A DNA stretch of 43,375 nucleotides from Chthonomonadaceae bacterium (lineage in GTDB: Bacteria > Armatimonadota > Chthonomonadetes > Chthonomonadales > Chthonomonadaceae). Each line of letters opens with the position of its first letter. Positions within the stretch are counted from its first letter, which is position 1. The notes under the pieces are model-generated. The model had not been told where the DNA came from and ran no database searches. It was given only the letters and a program-made list of their open reading frames with translations. Both the position numbers and the translations under genes were made by a program. Positions 156 to 8,227 of this stretch are shown here, in pieces. The DNA lies in contig DASRGZ010000079.1 of assembly GCA_035650735.1 (NCBI GenBank), positions 1 to 43,375 of the forward strand. The letters run 5' to 3'.

Positions 156-265
156 TAGATGGCACATAGATTTCGGGTACGGATTTTTGGAACAGAAAGG
201 GCGGGGGATCGTATCCGCAAGACGCAGGGGCCAAGTGTCCCCGGAAACGCTCGTTTTCGGGAACA
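150..265. promoter_or_regulatory. Probable res site region (resolvase binding subsites)
   Basis: Imperfect palindrome GTCCCCGGAAACGCTCGTTTTCGGGAAC at ~237-264, directly upstream of the resolvase promoter, the usual position for res subsites. Confidence 0.45.
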
Positions 266-1984
266 GGCGGAAGCGGCTTGGAAGGTACAATGAGGTCATT
301 CTTATCCGCCGGAGGAGTGTCGCCATGTCCCTGCGCCCGCACAGTATTGAGCCTGTCCCGGAGCAAACCGCTCGTATTGCTCAGGCTGCTTTCCCCAAAG
401 GCAACCTCTATATGCAGATGCGCCAGGAGTTAGGAACCTTCTACACCGACGCAGACTTTGCTACCCTCTACCCCAGGCGCGGGCAACCGGCCATCGCCCC
501 CTGGCGTCTGGCGCTGGTGACGGTCATGCAGTTCGTGGAGAACCTCTCCGACCGGCAAGCGGCGGAGGCGGTGCGCGCTCGCATTGATTGGAAATATGCG
601 CTCGGATTAGAGTTGATCGATCCTGGCTTTGACTTCTCCATCCTCTCAGAGTTTCGTGCCCGCCTGGTCGAAGGCGAGGCGGAACAGAGATTGCTCGACC
701 GAATGCTGGAAGTGTTCGGCGAGAAGAAGCTCCTCAAAGCGCGCGGTCATCAGCGCACCGACAGCACTCATGTGCTGGCTTCTATCCGAGTAATGAACCG
801 CCTGGAACTCGTCACCGAAACCTTGCGAGCAACGCTCAATGATCTGGCAAGCGTCGCCCCCGATTGGCTGCGCTCGGTCGCTCCGGCAGAGTGGCAGGAG
901 CGCTATACTCAGCGCGCGGAACAGTCGCGGCTGCCCAAAGGGGAGAAGGCGCGCAAGGAGTATGCCGAAGTCGTGGGACAAGATGGCGTGTTGCTCCTGC
1001 GTCTGCTGGACGAGCAGCAACCGGGCTTGAAGAAACGGGCAGAGGTGGAGACGTTGCGCCAGGTCTGGGCTCGCCACTTTGCCCGCTGCGAAACCGGCGA
1101 ACTTTTGTGGCGAGCCGAGGCTGAATTATCCCGCGCGGCCACCGCCATTGAATCACCCTATGACACCGAGGCGCGTCACAGCAACAAGCGCGACACGTCC
1201 TGGACGGGCTACAAAGTGCATCTGACTGAAACCTGCGATGCTGATCTGCCCCGGATCGTGACCGATGTGCTGACCACCGTTGCCACCACACAAGATGTGG
1301 CTTGCACCGCCGATATTCAGCAGTCGCTGGCGGACAAAAACTTGCTGCCCGCTCGCCACCTGGTAGACACCGGCTATGTGGATGGCGATCTATTGGTCAG
1401 CAGCAAAGAGAAACACGCCATTGAACTCTTCGGCCCGCCGCGCGAGGGACAGAGTTGGCAAGCCCGCGAAGGTGGTTACGACCAGGCGCGATTTACAGTG
1501 GATTGGGAGCGGGAACGCGCCTTCTGCCCGGAGGGAAAGGCATCGGCTTCCTGGCGCTCTTACACCCAAGAGCCGTATGGCTACTCCATTGTGAAGGTGC
1601 GCTTCGCTCAGAAAGACTGCATAAACTGCCTGAGCCGCGAGAGATGCGTTCGCTCGGCGGGAGGGCAGTCACGCACGCTTGTGTTGCCCGCGCGTCCTCT
1701 CTATGAAGCCTTACAGCAGACGCGCAGCGACCTGACTACCGAAGAGGGCAAAGCGGAGTATCGCAAGCGGGCGGGCGTGGAAGGCTCGCTGTCGCAAGGG
1801 GTTCGGCGAAGTGGAATGCGGTGTTCGCGGTATTACGGCTTGTCCAAGACGCACTTACAGCACCTGGCGACAGCGGCGGCACTCAACGTCGTGCGGGTGA
1901 CGGATTATCTGGCTGGGAAGCCGCTGGCGAAGACGCGCCGTTCGCGTTTTGCGAGATTGGCGGCATGAATTCGCCAACGGTATC
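266..1984 (+). mobile_element. IS1182-family insertion sequence (ends approximate)
   Basis: Intact transposase. The right end is probably GAATTCGCCAACGGTATC just after the stop, abutting a hairpin at 1985-2005. The left end and target duplication could not be identified. Confidence 0.6.
325..1968 (+). CDS. IS1182-family DDE transposase
   Basis: ATG at 325 with GGAGGAG RBS. MSLRP..PVPEQTARIAQAAFPKGN start, LSDRQAAEAVRARIDWKYAL, TDSTH, VDTGY, YRKRAGVEG and HLQHLATAAALN motifs typical of IS1182 transposases. Confidence 0.9.
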   Translation: MSLRPHSIEPVPEQTARIAQAAFPKGNLYMQMRQELGTFYTDADFATLYPRRGQPAIAPWRLALVTVMQFVENLSDRQAAEAVRARIDWKYALGLELIDPGFDFSILSEFRARLVEGEAEQRLLDRMLEVFGEKKLLKARGHQRTDSTHVLASIRVMNRLELVTETLRATLNDLASVAPDWLRSVAPAEWQERYTQRAEQSRLPKGEKARKEYAEVVGQDGVLLLRLLDEQQPGLKKRAEVETLRQVWARHFARCETGELLWRAEAELSRAATAIESPYDTEARHSNKRDTSWTGYKVHLTETCDADLPRIVTDVLTTVATTQDVACTADIQQSLADKNLLPARHLVDTGYVDGDLLVSSKEKHAIELFGPPREGQSWQAREGGYDQARFTVDWERERAFCPEGKASASWRSYTQEPYGYSIVKVRFAQKDCINCLSRERCVRSAGGQSRTLVLPARPLYEALQQTRSDLTTEEGKAEYRKRAGVEGSLSQGVRRSGMRCSRYYGLSKTHLQHLATAAALNVVRVTDYLAGKPLAKTRRSRFARLAA

Positions 1985-2161: not shown

Positions 2162-2956
2162 CTATTTTTCGTTCGGCAGTGGACAACAGCCCGAAGCAAG
2201 AGCCTGCTGCAAAGCGACAATGCCTTGCTCGTCCAGATGAACACGCGCTGCTTTTAGAATCGCGCTTTCTATCCCATCCTGCCGCGTCTTTGCCAGCTTT
2301 GTGGAACCGCTAACGAAGCGGCGATGAAAGACGTTTGCGAAAGCGGCCTCTAGCGCGCGGCCCTGCTCATCGGTGAGCGTTGTTTTTGCCTTCATCCTTC
2401 GGACGATGCGGGCCGCGATGATCCCCGCCTCTTCTTCGCTGAGGCGATCTACCTCCGCGCCGCGATACCAGCCTGCGTCCGCGCTGAACTCCTTCAGTGC
2501 GGCATTGCGACTGGCCTCCTTGAGTTCCTTTAGGTCGAAGTTTTGTTGTTTCGCGAGCGACCGGATCGCTTCGTCTCGCGCCGCCTGGGAGGAGTCTTTC
2601 TCCCACACAACGGCTATCAGGGTTCCGGGACGATTCAGCCAGGCTTGCGCCACCTCCGGCCTGCGCTCTAAGGCCAGAAGCACAGGTTTAGACCGGCTAC
2701 CACACCCGATTTCCGGGGCGGCGGGGCAAACCAGGGGAACGGAGTAGAAACTCATGCGGTCGGGAGCGATATTCTGCATTGTGCGGTTCCTTTCTACGGC
2801 AAGGCTTTTCCCTGCCGCCTTAGCCAGTGGCGAAGGACAGCAGCCAGGCGCACCGTCCTCGTGCGCTCGCACGTTTGCGGCAATGACACCGCATGCCGCG
2901 ATAGCGGCAAGGCCCAGGCTTAACGCGAAGGGGGTTCTGAACTGTTGAGTTTTCAT
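2162..2956 (-). CDS. Exported Cys-rich putative metal-binding protein (last gene of the mer operon)
   Basis: Likely ATG at 2956 (AAGGAG RBS). Signal peptide, GCCP near the N-terminus, CPAAPEIGCG motif in an HMA-like segment, C-terminal GCCP. Confidence 0.7.
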   Translation of the reverse strand: MKTQQFRTPFALSLGLAAIAACGVIAANVRAHEDGAPGCCPSPLAKAAGKSLAVERNRTMQNIAPDRMSFYSVPLVCPAAPEIGCGSRSKPVLLALERRPEVAQAWLNRPGTLIAVVWEKDSSQAARDEAIRSLAKQQNFDLKELKEASRNAALKEFSADAGWYRGAEVDRLSEEEAGIIAARIVRRMKAKTTLTDEQGRALEAAFANVFHRRFVSGSTKLAKTRQDGIESAILKAARVHLDEQGIVALQQALASGCCPLPNEK

Positions 2957-3002
2957 CAACGTTCTCCTTTCTTCCAAGATCACGGACAACAGGGGGTGCT
3001 TG

Positions 3003-3629
3003 TCACTTCTTCACGGGGCAGCAGGCGTCTCCGTGAGAGGTTATCTCCGTAGCCGGGAAACCGGTTCGATCAATGGTTTCCCGTAGTTTTGGCACGCCGA
3101 TGCGCGTCGCATCGTAGCGCACGGTCGCCTGCTTCGTGTCGAAGTCCACCTTCGCGTCGTAGACGCCGGGCGTCTTCTTGAGCGTGTCGGCGATATTCGC
3201 CGCGCACGCGGCACAGTCCATCGAGGGGATAGTGAATCGAACGGTCTGCGCCTTCACCGACGCAGCGACCGCCGGGACGGAAGCAGCCGACACTCGTGCA
3301 TGATACGCGGCGATGTTGGGATAGGCCAGCGTCCCCACTGTGAAGAGCGTCACGACCCACAGCAGCGCCCGGCTGATGCGCCGGGCGCGCACGGACTTTG
3401 TATCGCAGTCCGTTTCGCACCCTGCTTTCCCTGGCCGGTAGGTGAAGTAAAACGCCGCGCCGAGCAGCAGCACGGTCAAGGCAATGAAGTAAGGACGGTA
3501 CGGAACCAGCGCCGCACTGAGGCCCACCGTTCCAACGCTTGCCGCCCCTAAGAGGAGCGGGAGAATACAGCAGGCGGAGGCCGCGATTGCGGCCACCACC
3601 ACGCCTAGCAGCACAGAAAGTTTTTTCAT
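3003..3629 (-). CDS. merT: Mercuric ion transporter MerT fused to a MerP-like HMA domain
   Basis: ASACCILP in TM1, PYRPYF motif, three TM segments, loop cysteines, then an HMA domain with MDCAAC. Adjacent to merA. Confidence 0.85.
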   Translation of the reverse strand: MKKLSVLLGVVVAAIAASACCILPLLLGAASVGTVGLSAALVPYRPYFIALTVLLLGAAFYFTYRPGKAGCETDCDTKSVRARRISRALLWVVTLFTVGTLAYPNIAAYHARVSAASVPAVAASVKAQTVRFTIPSMDCAACAANIADTLKKTPGVYDAKVDFDTKQATVRYDATRIGVPKLRETIDRTGFPATEITSHGDACCPVKK

Positions 3630-3642
3630 CGCAGATACTCCT

Positions 3643-5094
3643 TCACTCTGCGCAGCAGGAGAGCTTCGCCGGGTCTTTGTAGCGGGAGATGGCGGCGATC
3701 TTGAGCGCTTCCGCCATAGTCGGGTAAACGTGTAGCATGTCTATGAAGTCATGGATGCTGGCACGGAACCGCAATGCCATCGCCGCTTCGTGGATCACCT
3801 CAGCGGCGCTGTTTCCCACTATCGTCACCCCCAGCACCTCGTTTGTGTCGGCATCCGCGACCATCTTGACAAAGCCCTGAGTGTCGCGGATCGCGCCCGC
3901 ACGCGGAACCAGAGACATGGGGATCGTGTTGCACCAGCAGGCATGCCCTGCGGCTATAGCCTGCTCCTCCGTCATGCCGACAATGCCAATCTGCGGGTCG
4001 GTGAAGATGGTGCGGGGGATCACGCGATGATTGACCAGTAAGGGCTTTTCCCCTGAGAGCGCGTTGTGCGCGGCTTTGCCGCCGTCTTGACTGCCCACGG
4101 GCGTCGCCATCTGGCTTCCGGTTTCGGCTCCGATCACATCCCCTGCCGCGAAGATATGCGCCACATTCGTCCGCAGGGTTTCATCCACGCGGACGGCTCC
4201 CGCAGCGTCCAATTCCACCCCTGCCTTTTCAATGGCGATGGTATCCGTATTGGGGCGGCGGCCTGTGGCAATGAGAATTCTTTCGGCCCGAAACTCCTGC
4301 GCACTATCTCCCACCTGGACGGTTGCGGCGACCTCGTTCCCCTCCTGACAGACGCGGCGTACCGTGGCCCCAGTGACGACGCGGATGCCCTCCTGCGTGA
4401 AGATGTCAGCGATGGTCGGCCCAACTTCTGGTTCATGACCGTGCGCCAGCAAGCGGTCGTTGCGTTCCAGAACGGTGACTTCGGCCCCGAATCGGCGGAA
4501 CATCTGCCCCAGTTCCAGCGCGATGTAGCCGCCGCCCACGATCAGCAATGATCGCGGGCACTCCTTCAATTCCATCGGTTCGTCGTGCGTCAGGAGGTCA
4601 CTGGTAAGATAGGGCACTCCCTGGAGGCCGTCAATAGGCGGCAGCACGGGCCGCGATCCCGTGGCGATGAGAATTCTCTCGCCGGTAAGCCGCTTGCCCC
4701 CAATCTCCACTGTGTGCGCATCGAGGAACTGGGCATGGCCCTTCTCGATGCTGAACTGCCCGCCAACGAGACTGTCGTATTTCTTATCGCGGTAAACCTG
4801 GATGACTTCATCTTTCTGGGAAATGAGTTTCCCGAAGTCCAGGCTCAGGGCAGCACCGGTCAGACCAGGAAAGCGCGGGTGCTGCGCGTCGTAGAGGAGT
4901 TTCGCGGCCTCGATCAAGTTCTTGGAGGGCAGACAGCCTCGGTTGACGCAGGTTCCGCCGATAGCACGTTCCTCGGTCATCACAGCGGTTTTGCCCATCT
5001 CCTGGGCGCGGAGCGCAGCGGCGAAGGCGGTAGAGCCGGAGCCGAGGATTACAAGGTTGAAATGCTGTTCATTCTGATCGTGATGGTCAGCCAT
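3643..5094 (-). CDS. merA: Mercury(II) reductase lacking the NmerA domain
   Basis: GSGSTA FAD motif, [13 protein letters not shown] redox pair, GGGYIA NADPH motif, HVYPTMAE and C-terminal LSCCAE vicinal cysteines diagnostic of MerA. Confidence 0.95.
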
Positions 5095-5158
5095 TGCGGG
5101 CTTCTCCTTTGCCGTCCGGCGATGCGCTCGGACGATAGTGACACGTTATAGATAGTGG

Positions 5159-5242
5159 CTATAGAGGCCGGTCGGTTAGCCGCTTCAGCAGGAGCAGGGC
5201 GAGCACAAAGGCCCCGCCGCAGCAGATCAAGTGGACTATCAT
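5159..5242 (-). CDS. 27-aa Cys-Cys membrane micropeptide (MIVHLICCGGAFVLALLLLKRLTDRPL)
   Basis: ATG preceded by AAAGGAAAG. Lies within the operon just before merA. HLICCG matches HLLCCG of the 7240-7533 protein. Confidence 0.5.
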   Translation of the reverse strand: MIVHLICCGGAFVLALLLLKRLTDRPL

Positions 5243-5517
5243 GGTTCTTTCCTTTTCTGTTCTTTCCAGGCGGTTCCCGGTGCTTCCCGTCGCCTGTTGG
5301 CTCATGGAGTGCGCAAGGCAAACGCCTTGCTCAGGTCGTCCGTCTCTTCCGTCATTACCGGGTCGCGGTTCCAGAGGTCACTCTCCAGCGTCGCCTTAAC
5401 GACTGCCACGATGCGACGTGGCTCCGCCCTTTGCGGGTCAAAGCCTATCTCCAGCAAGAGGTTCGACCCCGCCTGCGTCTGCTTTACCGCGCTCACGCCG
5501 TCTACCGCCTTCACCTT

Positions 5518-5536
5518 CTCGACCACACGGGTCAAG
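5518..5536 (-). other. SECIS-like hairpin downstream of the TGA at 5545-5547
   Basis: CUUGACC-CGUGU-GGUCGAG: 7-bp stem with one G-U pair, starting 8 nt after UGA, G at loop position 2. Confidence 0.55.
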
Positions 5537-5910
5537 CACGACGCTCAAGTGAAGCGGCTGGAACCCACAGCGACCCGGCCTTCCTCCTCCTTGTACCGGA
5601 TGATGCCCCCGCGCCCGCTCGATCCTTCTGTTGCCGCCCTCTTCTTCGTCAGGATTGCGTTGAGGCGCGAGACTACATCCCCCGCCTGCGAATAGAGCAG
5701 CCGCGAATCCTTGCCGATGATCACGACATGGGGCAGAGCACCGGACACGCTGAACCGGTCGATCCCTGCCTGCTCGCGATCTATAAGATAGAGATACGTA
5801 AGGCGGTGCGCAGCCTTGAACGCCTTCGCCTTGCGTTCAGGGGTCGCCCGCATTGATGCCGATGACCTGGACGCCTTTGGTGTTCAACTTCTGCCACACT
5901 TCCTTCTCCA

Positions 5911-5929
5911 AACGCGGAGCCTCCGCGTT
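5911..5929 (-). other. SECIS-like hairpin downstream of the TGA at 5939-5941
   Basis: AACGCGGA-GGC-UCCGCGUU: perfect 8-bp stem starting 9 nt after UGA, with a G-led apical loop. Confidence 0.65.
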
Positions 5930-6134
5930 GCACGACCCTCAATAGGCGGCAGAGAAGGCCACCACCGTATGTCCTTTGAATTGGCTCAGGCGCACGGTCT
6001 TGCCACCGGTGTCTTTGAGCGCGAACTCCTTCACCACGTCACCAACTTTGTAAGGCACGGGCGGAGCGGCATCTGCCCCGCGCCGGTGAGCAGGATCGCT
6101 CCCACAATGGCAGCGATTTTCGTGACCGCTTTCA

Positions 6135-6533
6135 TCACTGCACGCCTCCTCTCTTTCTGCGGGTCAGGTCATCAAGCAGTGCTCCGAGCGTTCCGTCGAG
6201 GTGTTCGTGCCGAATATGGTAGCAGGCGAACTTTCCCTCCTTGCGCACTTTCAAAATGCCGGACGCGGTGAGGATTTTCAGATGATGGCTCACTGACGGC
6301 ATGGACATATCGAGCAGCACCGATAGTTCGCAGACGCAGAGCGACTCGTGCGTCAGCGCGAAGAGAATCCGCACGCGAACCGGATCGGCAATGGCTCGAA
6401 GCAGGTTCGTCGCCGCATCGAAGGCATCGTCGGGCGGCATCTGCATGGCAACGCGCCGCACCCGCGTAGGGTCGTCGTTGTAGGCGTCACAGGTCAATTC
6501 GGTAATGTCGCGGTCGTCTAGCGTGATAGGCAT
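6135..6533 (-). CDS. ArsR/SmtB-family metal-sensing repressor (CadC-like)
   Basis: ATG at 6533 with AGGAGG RBS. ADPVRVRIL, SLCVCEL, SVSHHLKIL and RKEGKFACY motifs. First gene of the operon. Confidence 0.9.
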   Translation of the reverse strand: MPITLDDRDITELTCDAYNDDPTRVRRVAMQMPPDDAFDAATNLLRAIADPVRVRILFALTHESLCVCELSVLLDMSMPSVSHHLKILTASGILKVRKEGKFACYHIRHEHLDGTLGALLDDLTRRKRGGVQ

Positions 6534-6552
6534 GTCTGATCCTCCTACATTC

Positions 6553-6586
6553 ATTCTACCATACGATTCGATCATTGTTTAATCGT
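6553..6586 (-). promoter_or_regulatory. Extended -10 promoter and candidate ArsR operator
   Basis: TGG-TAGAAT (-10 at 6553-6558) and ACGATT-N12-AATCGT inverted repeat (6563-6586) between the divergent genes. Confidence 0.5.
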
Positions 6587-6652
6587 TGGAACAATTTTTG
6601 GTTTCCGACAGTCGTTCTGAGAGCAAGAGCGTGACGCGAGGAGGAACAAACA

Positions 6653-7243
6653 ATGGCTAACGCGGTGACGAGTTATGGAACCGATGCGTGTCCTCCGCAG
6701 GGCACCGAGCGAGTGAACGGTGAACAGCCGATCCCGAAGAAGACAGTCGGCGCGGGGAGCGTCGTCGGAGACCTCGTGAAAGGAGCCGTCGCCGGACTCG
6801 TGGCGACGAAGTTAATGGGCTGGGTGACAAACTTCATCTGGGAGCACGAACCGCTCGCCGCTCGCCAGCAATACGAGCGAGTCACAGGCGGCAAGTATCC
6901 TCCCGACCGGGCTGCCGAATCCATAGAGAGAACGCTCCACCTCCAAGTCAACGAGAAACAGCACGGTGCGCTGGCTCAAGCCATGCACATGGGGCTTGGG
7001 ATCGGGGCCGGAATGGTCTATGCGCTCATGCGGAGGCGGGTTAGGGGCGCAGATCGCGGGCAGGGTCTTCTGTTCGGATTATTGTTTGCCGCCATCGTGG
7101 ATGAGGGACTGACGCCACTACTGGGCCTTGCCGAGCCGCCGCAGAAGTATCCCTGGCAGGCCCACGTTCGCGGTCTAGCCGGTCATGTCGCATACGGTGT
7201 GGCGGCAGACTCGACGCTGGATGTATTGGACAAATTAGCATGA
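6653..7243 (+). CDS. DUF1440-like membrane protein
   Basis: GAGGAGG RBS. GAVAGLVAT..M, H.GLG...G.VY, DEGLTPLLGL and H.RGLAGHVAYG pattern. Confidence 0.65.
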   Translation: MANAVTSYGTDACPPQGTERVNGEQPIPKKTVGAGSVVGDLVKGAVAGLVATKLMGWVTNFIWEHEPLAARQQYERVTGGKYPPDRAAESIERTLHLQVNEKQHGALAQAMHMGLGIGAGMVYALMRRRVRGADRGQGLLFGLLFAAIVDEGLTPLLGLAEPPQKYPWQAHVRGLAGHVAYGVAADSTLDVLDKLA

Positions 7244-7533
7244 ATAGAGACTCAGGACGACCGAAGGGCTGGGGACTTGTGGCGCTGTTCGCGCTGCTAC
7301 ACCTGCTTTGCTGCGGTGTACCGCTTCTGCTCCTCTCCGGGGTGTCGCTGGCATTCCTCGCCCCGCACTGGCCTGCAATCGGAGTAGCGCTGGCGGTGCT
7401 CGGCGTGGTGGGGTTTGTCTGGTATCTCAAGCGCCGTTGCCCTACGTGTCCTCGGAATGAAGCCCGGTATCTATTGGATCGGCAAGCCAAAGATAAAGAT
7501 GATGGGCAAGGTGAGCATCCGGTGACCAGGTAG
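7240..7533 (+). CDS. Small two-TM Cys-Cys membrane protein, MerF/MerE-like metal transporter candidate
   Basis: ATGA overlap with the upstream gene. LHLLCCGVP in TM1, second TM, then a CPTC tail. Confidence 0.6.
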   Translation: MNRDSGRPKGWGLVALFALLHLLCCGVPLLLLSGVSLAFLAPHWPAIGVALAVLGVVGFVWYLKRRCPTCPRNEARYLLDRQAKDKDDGQGEHPVTR

Positions 7534-7975: not shown

Positions 7976-8227
7976 ATTCCACGTGGGCTCCGCGATCTAC
8001 TCCGCGACGTCATCATATTATGGTGAACGTAGGGATTGGCAATATGAGCTTTATAGTATATAACCCAAGTTGCTACCTAGGAACACGTTTGAGAGAGGAT
8101 CGCTCTGGAAACCGGCTTTTGCATCACCGTTTGCCTTCTCGAAGAGGCAAGGTAGCAACTTGAGTTAGATATTATGATCGTACGCGTTCATGCTGGATAC
8201 TTAACGAGTGCGTGAGAGGAGAATCAG

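Follow-up and report, generated by a model that had tools for sequence, protein, structure and literature searches.

A mercury-resistance (mer) operon on contig DASRGZ010000079.1 of a Chthonomonadaceae bacterium (Armatimonadota; 43,375 nucleotides, in the following called the window) contains a stretch between arsR and merA that is scattered over small open reading frames (ORFs), and the question arises whether a single gene for a protein with two selenocysteine (Sec) residues is, or once was, present there. An earlier note on this DNA had proposed such a gene at 5302..6135, coupled to arsR and encoding an exported redoxin-HMA protein of ~277 amino acids (aa). These coordinates are correct, and we likewise read one gene in three frame pieces that is coupled to arsR. 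In our opinion, which we hold with moderate confidence, it is best explained as a gene for an exported double selenoprotein which was inactivated recently and had been acquired as an accessory of an arsR-merA-merTP mercury operon.

Gene architecture and selenocysteine codons

The gene comprises a hydrophobic start resembling a signal peptide, a TlpA-type redoxin with the active site U-G-S-C and a predicted HMA-fold domain with the motif FT-U-A-S-C, and its three frame pieces add up to 277 codons (276 counted plus a Pro at the second break). Its ATG at 6135 is preceded by AGGAGG at a distance of 9 nucleotides (nt) and has one base in common with the arsR stop codon (TGATG), while the reading frame ends with the stop codon 5304-5302. 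As the DNA stands, the first piece runs on out of frame and yields a 34-aa peptide that stops at TGA 6033-6031. By virtue of its signal peptide, the intact protein would have left the cytoplasm. Assignment of the middle part to the TlpA/AhpC-like redoxins, already made in the earlier note, is borne out by Pfam (AhpC-TSA, 49.5 over a cut-off of 26; Redoxin, 45.2 over 26.6); x-x-C is kept and LP is found at the cis-Pro column. The scores stay below the NCBIfam cut-offs for ResA (62.9 vs 170) and for the WAxxUGC selenoprotein (24.1 vs 300). Neither a second signal peptide nor a start codon nor a ribosome site is present upstream of the HMA domain, and a fold predicted from the sequence of the read-through protein alone was of no use (predicted local distance difference test, pLDDT, 44).

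Both TGAs align to the catalytic Cys of homologues. The host genome (G000; 6.5 Mb, 97.6% complete), in which a look for the Sec machinery had been recommended, indeed contains selA, selB, selD and tRNA-Sec, all above family cut-offs, and its selD itself has an in-frame TGA. Bacterial Sec insertion sequence (SECIS) elements are described, in the part of PMC13188914 available to us, as having a loop of 3-9 nt, a stem of 4-16 bp and a G in the first two loop positions, at a distance of 16-37 nt from UGA and with a folding energy of -7.5 kcal/mol or below. The hairpins behind both TGAs are within these limits, with the spacing of site 2 at the lower edge. The features that the earlier note had pointed out can be read from the sequence: the context TGAGSGTCGTGC is common to both TGAs, the stems start 9 nt (site 1) and 8 nt (site 2) behind them, and the loops AGGCU and CGUGU, which have G in second position, begin at the 17th and 16th base after UGA, respectively. 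We also drew up a SECIS rule by hand, with the examples already known, which asks for a loop 15-20 nt behind UGA and for G as its first or second base. Sites 1 and 2 satisfy it with stems of 8 and 7 bp; of 20,000 random genomic TGAs, 4.3% are followed by such a structure with at least 6 bp and 1.8% by one with at least 7 bp. Folding energies do not single out the hairpins (z -0.02 to 0.41, four folds).

For the redoxin site, comparison of homologous loci places it beyond reasonable doubt that TGA 5941-5939 codes for Sec. When 400 genomes of the phylum were searched with the redoxin, 30 of 34 non-self matches had one TGA inside the match. Exclusion of three duplicates gave 31 distinct loci (for L101, the copy read is a neighbouring paralogue), and a hairpin of at least 6 bp with a loop conforming to the SECIS model was found in 28/28 homologues with TGA and in 0/3 with Cys. 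Base pairs of SECIS 1 vary on both sides (UA/CG 16:12, CG/AU 15:13 in 28 distinct contexts including the window), and covariation reaches 0.293 as compared with 0.113 in shuffles (0/500) and at most 0.034 when slid; as the rows are related, the comparison with shuffles should not be read as a probability. In 11 of the 28 contexts, the outermost pair does not form. The hairpin in the window is a full member of the SECIS set of the redoxin family. The earlier note had advised checking whether homologues carry Cys or TGA at both sites, which holds true for the redoxin with its covarying SECIS; for the HMA site, Cys was found in the full-length homologues, and no orthologue with TGA was encountered at the DNA level. 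Loci L073-L101, L010 and L011 represent a family of exported Sec redoxins (U-x-x-C-N-[AE]-E-A-P) that is conserved in Armatimonadota and whose SECIS is near-invariant and covaries; a stand-alone copy of this family was not detected in G000 by tblastn.

The closest redoxins are those of P0007 and P0008 (69 and 67% identical over the C-terminal half; 99/99 support), both of which continue through a linker into a PDZ domain. Since the window redoxin clusters with these PDZ-fused proteins and apart from the stand-alone Sec redoxins of the family, it seems to represent a mobile Sec module that is joined to various partners. P0007 and P0008 start after and end before expected TGA positions, as deduced from the protein ends, and are themselves likely to be hidden two-Sec proteins related to NF041199.

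The second TGA (5547-5545) very probably codes for Sec as well. It is situated in an HMA domain whose two genomic orthologues (Acidobacteriota) have Cys at the TGA site. If all 81 nonsense changes that are possible are considered, only one falls on this very codon, and read-through otherwise meets no premature stop. Protein P0025, known at the protein level only, starts right behind the motif, just as a gene call after a stop codon would. At the DNA level, our searches revealed no HMA orthologue bearing TGA. Another genome of the phylum encodes an HMA selenoprotein (MT-U-GSC) that looks like a lipoprotein and whose gene has a SECIS-like hairpin (L061:1372-1800, plus strand).

The HMA subfamily and the mercury operon

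The C-terminal domain carries FT-U-xx-C and not GMxCxxC, and it matches neither Pfam HMA (PF00403) nor MerP (TIGR02052) at an E value of 0.1. It does, however, find a small family with the pattern GG...S[NS]RF[TR]CxxC...RV...ALExDP, and its predicted model (pLDDT 84.2) exhibits a ferredoxin-like fold with the motif located before helix 1. The best eight structural matches are HMA domains (Z 7.4, root mean square deviation 2.3, 71 residues aligned; unrelated folds reach Z 7.0), those at the top being domains of copper chaperones and ATPases, such that the model assigns an HMA fold to this domain. The HMA/MerP-like character originally ascribed to the domain is supported by fold and subfamily, but not by an MxCxxC motif or a Pfam HMA match. 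A homologue, P0019, has a precomputed PF00403 match and scores 29 against the TIGR02052 cut-off of 92.55; an Atlas search with this protein gave only leads under 0.9.

In 400 other Armatimonadota genomes, the search yielded ordinary HMA matches only and no member of the subfamily. Among the 301 and 401 Acidobacteriota genomes searched, it occurs in the same two genomes only, in both cases as a signal-peptide protein encoded directly upstream of a MerA that is 67-68% identical to that in the window, in the order merR-merT(-HMA)-thioredoxin-fold-subfamily gene-merA. The check advised earlier, whether homologues reside near merA, was positive for the HMA subfamily (2/2 genomes); an intact fusion was not found there. 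In P0037, the subfamily domain is placed behind a MerP domain that passes TIGR02052, and by eye P0023 and P0038 resemble P0037. Because of its location before merA in two genomes and behind MerP in P0037, we regard this HMA subfamily, on the strength of gene order and domain combination, as a mer accessory in its own right. The link to mercury goes beyond the position of the gene in the window, as the subfamily precedes merA in two Acidobacteriota genomes and a Cys-containing TlpA occurs in the mer operon of pI258. The two Acidobacteriota loci (L070:8799-9995, minus strand; L071:7149-10588, plus strand) are mer operons of the Pyrinomonas type, in which MerT(-HMA) is fused to a thioredoxin-fold domain and the HMA-subfamily gene precedes merA; a selA-like gene, recognized by eye, lies ~2 kb from the operon in L071.

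The operon in the window is a true mer operon, just as the earlier note had it: MerA is above its cut-off and has the C-terminal CC, MerT is present as transporter and ArsR as regulator. Control of mer operons by ArsR is already known (PMC3466566, in the part available). Nine of 400 other Armatimonadota genomes contain this MerA; arsR adjoins merA at all nine loci (eight in line, one divergent), and the ArsR orthologues are 57-70% identical. At none of these nine loci was a match to the redoxin-HMA fusion obtained at an E value of 0.01, which is why we consider the 1.04-kb stretch an insert in a conserved arsR-merA-merTP operon.

Probable inactivation of the gene and competing readings

The earlier note had advised repairing both frameshifts. 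They are, however, present in the DNA of three sequencing runs (X4, X2 and X6), whose agreement rules out an assembly error as their cause, and at the second frameshift homologues keep the frame. Production of a ~277-aa protein in this strain, as had been inferred, is not supported. Nine sequencing runs contain the region in whole or in part; six have at least half of it, and five are flagged as possible sources. We compared four: X4 (soil, 2017), X2 (mine, 2024), X6 (mine, not flagged) and X7, in which the gene is outside coverage. X4 and X2 cover positions 5100-6900 with zero differences, and X6 covers both breaks without a gap and with one substitution at 5372; the comparison is one of contigs, in which rare variants are hidden. 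Two Joint Genome Institute (JGI) contigs are 100% identical to the region and may share a source. RNA datasets were not among the runs carrying the region.

At the second break, P0007 and P0008 are in frame (GDPERK), and it follows that a C was gained at 5843-5840. In addition, one codon is deleted before the redoxin active site, a change that is unique and shared by 0/29 aligned homologues. In the redoxin, 4 of 31 conserved columns and 0 of 17 strongly conserved columns are changed, the end branch measures 0.17, and the GC content at third codon positions is 0.73-0.76, like that of the operon. With so few substitutions, such a branch and such a composition, the break appears to be recent. An excess of substitutions as a sign of long decay was not found in the redoxin. 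For the HMA domain, 5 of 22 conserved columns are changed, including a conserved Pro; this is within the range of divergent members (0-13) and was dropped as a sign of decay. Three indels within ~240 bases with little else altered is the pattern of a young pseudogene, which on these sequence features is what the gene in the window most likely is. The single open frame from the start through the Sec codons that is expected of a selenoprotein gene is absent. Of motifs for programmed frameshifting, only CCC-UGA at break 2 is present, break 1 being devoid of a slippery heptamer, and behind the TGA of this CCC-TGA no SECIS is found. The breaks are not conserved: P0007 and P0008 are in frame and the 31 loci of the phylum read through.

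An intact copy of the fusion was sought widely. Neither it nor an HMA orthologue bearing TGA was found in 60 relatives, in the 400 Armatimonadota genomes or in the 301 and 401 Acidobacteriota genomes (two Cys matches only). Nor was either of them found in five single genomes, in plasmids and viral contigs, among the matches listed in scans of metagenome and genome contigs by exact short patterns, or in protein databases, where proteins cut at TGA are poorly visible. All these searches are samples and not proof of absence. We deem it fairly probable that there was once an intact mer protein of this exported double-Sec kind and that unsampled strains have it to this day.

How could such a protein have worked? 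Mercury binds selenols more tightly than thiols. Both UGAs would be read as Sec by SelB and the SECIS hairpins, the first as shown by comparison of homologues, the second probably, and the intact protein would be exported by its signal peptide. Electrons might then be passed from a DsbD-type protein, for which the host genome contains a DsbD_TM gene elsewhere, to the U-x-x-C of the TlpA-like redoxin. By analogy with the TlpA and MerP families and with pI258, the redoxin would keep the U-x-x-C of the HMA domain reduced in the periplasm, where the selenol-thiol pair could bind Hg(II) and either hand it on to MerT for uptake, with MerA as the subsequent reductase, or retain it as a sink. As for the established components, MerP is characterized as a periplasmic scavenger, and ArsR-type control and the role of NmerA are treated as well, in the available parts of PMC3466566 and PMC10587081. 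In the present strain, loss of one base, loss of one codon and gain of one base have broken the gene. The core operon is intact and, judging from gene content, works without the insert in nine other genomes, which would permit decay.

Several observations weigh against the reading as a recently inactivated double-selenoprotein gene. The broken allele is letter-identical over 1.8 kb between soil in 2017 and a mine in 2024, with both SECIS hairpins kept, an identity across two habitats that fits a clonal strain and also fits selection on something in the allele. Every full-length homologue of the HMA subfamily that was encountered has Cys. The nearest redoxin relatives are fused to PDZ and not to HMA, and among Armatimonadota redoxins no fusion to an HMA domain was seen. 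In P0021, the sole protein found to combine a redoxin with the subfamily HMA domain, a signal-like stretch is located inside the sequence, so that two adjacent genes may have been joined in it. Reconstruction of the ancestral two-Sec protein thus relies on one allele, with neither an intact fusion nor a TGA-bearing HMA orthologue at the DNA level beside it.

Can the gene still be expressed as it stands? It is conceivable, albeit improbable, that stacked recoding supports a low level of expression: ribosomes would restart at GTG after TGA 6033, shift by +1 on CCC-UGA and twice insert Sec, and thus make a cytoplasmic redoxin-HMA protein that could supply the NmerA-less MerA with Hg. The GTGA overlap is in frame, both SECIS are intact, the same allele is present in two habitats, MerA lacks NmerA, and CCC_UGA is a shift-prone sequence for which the available part of PMC3082878 reports a +1 shift of 15% in E. 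coli pheL, but one of ~1.9% in Salmonella, and for pdxH none that could be detected. Gain of a C before TGAA creates CCC-TGA automatically, however, homologues are in frame, the restart would drop the first redoxin strand with one more codon lost besides, and the nine other MerA loci of the phylum are devoid of such a partner. We likewise give little credence to the idea of a new selenium-based mercury-resistance part, with its own Sec reductase and Sec Hg-binding domain, that is still made by recoding and stands in for NmerA. Alternatively, only the redoxin may have been a selenoprotein, the HMA TGA having arisen from TGC by a nonsense change when the gene was dead already. The Cys in all full-length subfamily homologues would agree with this, TGC and TGA differ by one base, the gene is broken anyway, and SECIS 2 is represented by one sequence; still, a nonsense change hits this codon in just one of 81 cases with no further premature stop, a SECIS-like stem of 7 bp follows 1.8% of random TGAs, P0025 starts just after the motif (at the protein level), and Sec-HMA proteins exist in the phylum (L061), so this alternative is an unlikely one.

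The HMA fold itself does not reveal the metal, and a limited chance must be granted to the possibility that a general metal (Cu, Ag, Au) or redox protein is just a passenger in the operon and never took part in mercury resistance. Its best fold matches are copper chaperone and ATPase domains, members of its redoxin family are common and have no HMA partner, a MerT-HMA fusion is already part of the operon, and insertion sequence (IS) and resolvase genes are adjacent. This is countered by the position of the subfamily directly before merA in 2/2 other genomes, its fusion to MerP, the start-stop coupling of the gene to arsR and the TlpA precedent in pI258. Finally, redoxin and HMA domain could have been two genes that merged only after decay, in keeping with the fact that homologues of each half are mostly separate proteins. 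Stand-alone members of the subfamily, however, have a signal peptide before GG, in the window the HMA domain is preceded by no signal peptide, start or ribosome site, and the nearest redoxins likewise run through the linker into another domain, which makes this last explanation very improbable indeed. We therefore keep to the recently inactivated double-selenoprotein gene.

Operon neighbourhood and known systems

The operon reads, on the minus strand, promoter-like site, arsR, redoxin-HMA gene, 27-codon ORF, merA, merT-HMA and a 275-aa gene, after which an IS-type transposase follows (Table 1). The probable start of arsR is 6533, whereas the ORF list puts it at 6575. MerT-HMA falls below the NF033556 cut-off (136 vs 180). 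The 275-aa protein resembles in its structure (TM 0.71) a domain that occurs joined to MerT-HMA in a cluster of the Atlas (MerT in 90% and HMA in 98% of the cluster); its gene was not found at the nine other merA loci of the phylum nor at the two Acidobacteriota loci, and it is probably another unnamed mer accessory. The 27-codon ORF possibly encodes a small or remnant Hg-transport peptide. It has HL[IL]CCG in common with a 97-aa membrane protein (7240-7533, plus strand; 5/8 residues the same) that additionally contains CxxC. Neither matches a family; by resemblance, both are possible small Hg-transport proteins. Divergently from arsR, a DUF1440 membrane protein is encoded (6653-7243, plus strand). 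A transposase with DUF772 and DDE_Tnp_1_6 resides directly behind the operon (187-1968, plus strand), and the contig end (1-100, minus strand) carries, judged by eye, the first part of a gene resembling resolvases; from these two genes, the region around the operon looks mobile. An element resembling a miniature inverted-repeat transposable element (8055-8171, ~115 bp, terminal inverted repeats) is present in dozens of near-identical copies across G000 and coincides with the starts of two unitigs.

Table 1. Features of the mer operon and of the redoxin-HMA gene in the window
Feature	Position	Strand	Evidence or remark
Sigma-70-like promoter for the operon, TAAACA-17-TG-TAGAAT	6553..6581	-	consensus match only; 1 found vs 0.4 expected
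Regulator of the arsR/SmtB family	6135..6533	-	HTH_5 52.7 bits; NF033788 84.9 over cut-off 55
Piece A, start codon and signal-peptide-like segment	6080..6135	-	by eye and N-termini of homologues
Frameshift 1, G4 run lacking one base relative to the redoxin frame, without X XXY YYZ heptamer	6076..6079	-	runs X4, X2, X6
GTGA overlap, stop of 34-aa peptide over in-frame GTG of redoxin piece, possible restart	6031..6034	-	sequence
Piece B, N-terminal half of TlpA/AhpC-TSA redoxin with U-G-S-C	5840..6079	-	Pfam
Sec codon 1, TGA in ...FSAAY-U-GSC...	5939..5941	-	TGA in 28/31 homologous loci, TGC/TGT in 3
SECIS 1, 7-8 bp stem, loop AGGCU, -10.6 kcal/mol	5911..5929	-	covariation
Frameshift 2, C4 run (5843-5840) one base too long, creates CCC-TGA	5837..5843	-	runs X4, X2, X6
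Piece C, C-terminal half of redoxin, short linker, HMA-subfamily domain (about 5610-5350) with FT-U-A-S-C	5302..5838	-	
Probable Sec codon 2, TGA in ...SRFT-U-ASC...	5545..5547	-	at first Cys of subfamily CxxC
SECIS 2, 7-bp stem, loop CGUGU, -7.8 kcal/mol	5518..5536	-	one sequence, without orthologue for covariation
27-codon ORF, HLICCG and hydrophobic stretch, purine-rich ribosome site	5159..5242	-	no NCBIfam match
merA, intact, without NmerA domain, C-terminal CC	3643..5094	-	TIGR02053 492.4 bits over 454.45
merT fused to Cys HMA domain (MerTP-like), intact	3003..3629	-	MerT 49.8 over 32.9; HMA 65.6 over 24.8
275-aa hypothetical protein, last operon gene, CC and C-x6-C	2162..2989	-	no Pfam/NCBIfam family above threshold

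Mercury is a known poison of selenoproteins. A mer operon that recruits selenols would exploit Se-Hg chemistry and offer a natural test of whether the Se-Hg bond is passed on to MerT or dead-ends; as a speculation, decay in this strain hints at a dead end. The Cys form is intact, and the sole two-Sec copy found is broken, which limits the value of the finding. In the literature searched, in which most subscription papers and supplements were outside the search, we found no description of a Sec redoxin-HMA mer gene or of the HMA subfamily. The earlier opinion that this is not recognisable as a described mer gene is upheld as far as this literature goes, while Sec-containing MerT and HMA proteins and a mer TlpA are already on record and bring the gene closer to what is known.

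Among known systems, the mer operon of S. aureus pI258 (WP_000746202.1, WP_000010352.1) with its merR-TlpA-CcdA-merT-merA-merB order is similar in that an exported TlpA-type redoxin, 26% identical over 139 residues, is encoded right after the regulator. It differs by having Cys instead of Sec, a separate redoxin gene with its own CcdA, no HMA fusion and MerR instead of ArsR. Sec redoxin and TlpA proteins (PF08534 UxxC; UGC-containing TlpA) are recorded in the accessible part of PMC13188914; they have the thioredoxin fold, U-x-x-C and a bacterial SECIS in common with the window gene and with the conserved Armatimonadota family, but the window gene is fused to HMA, situated in a mer operon and broken. 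Likewise, Sec MerT, Sec HMA and two-Sec proteins including MbdU are on record in those parts of PMC13188914 and 10.1101/2022.07.06.499078 that were at hand. NF041115, NF045683, a putative mercuric transport protein and MbdU resemble the window protein by Sec at the Cys position of a heavy-metal site, and two-Sec proteins do exist; as far as these entries could be consulted, none was seen to combine redoxin and HMA domain. The window protein reaches 14.7 bits against a cut-off of 95 for NF041115 (UxxU metal-binding) and does not match NF045683 (MerT/CopZ).

MerP (TIGR02052) and the HMA chaperones (PF00403) have in common with the window domain its predicted HMA fold, the motif before helix 1, export and the location beside merT and merA, whereas the subfamily of the window domain is set apart by S[NS]RF[TR]-C/U-xx-C in place of GMTCxxC, by one more hairpin at the N-terminus and by the C-terminal ALExDP. 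A further related protein is P0019 (WP_352430757.1) from a Pyrinomonas-type mer operon, which belongs to the same subfamily (~36% identity), is encoded directly upstream of a 67-68% identical NmerA-less MerA and has a thioredoxin-fold domain before it. It differs as a stand-alone, MerR-regulated Cys form with its own signal peptide, and its thioredoxin-fold neighbour, fused to MerT, does not match the window redoxin. An unnamed HMA subfamily located before merA thus spans two phyla, and redoxins emerge as recurring mer accessories (pI258, Pyrinomonas-type operons, the window), of which we found no description in the literature searched. The kinds of components are already known; what appears to be new here is the Sec redoxin-HMA fusion in a mer operon.

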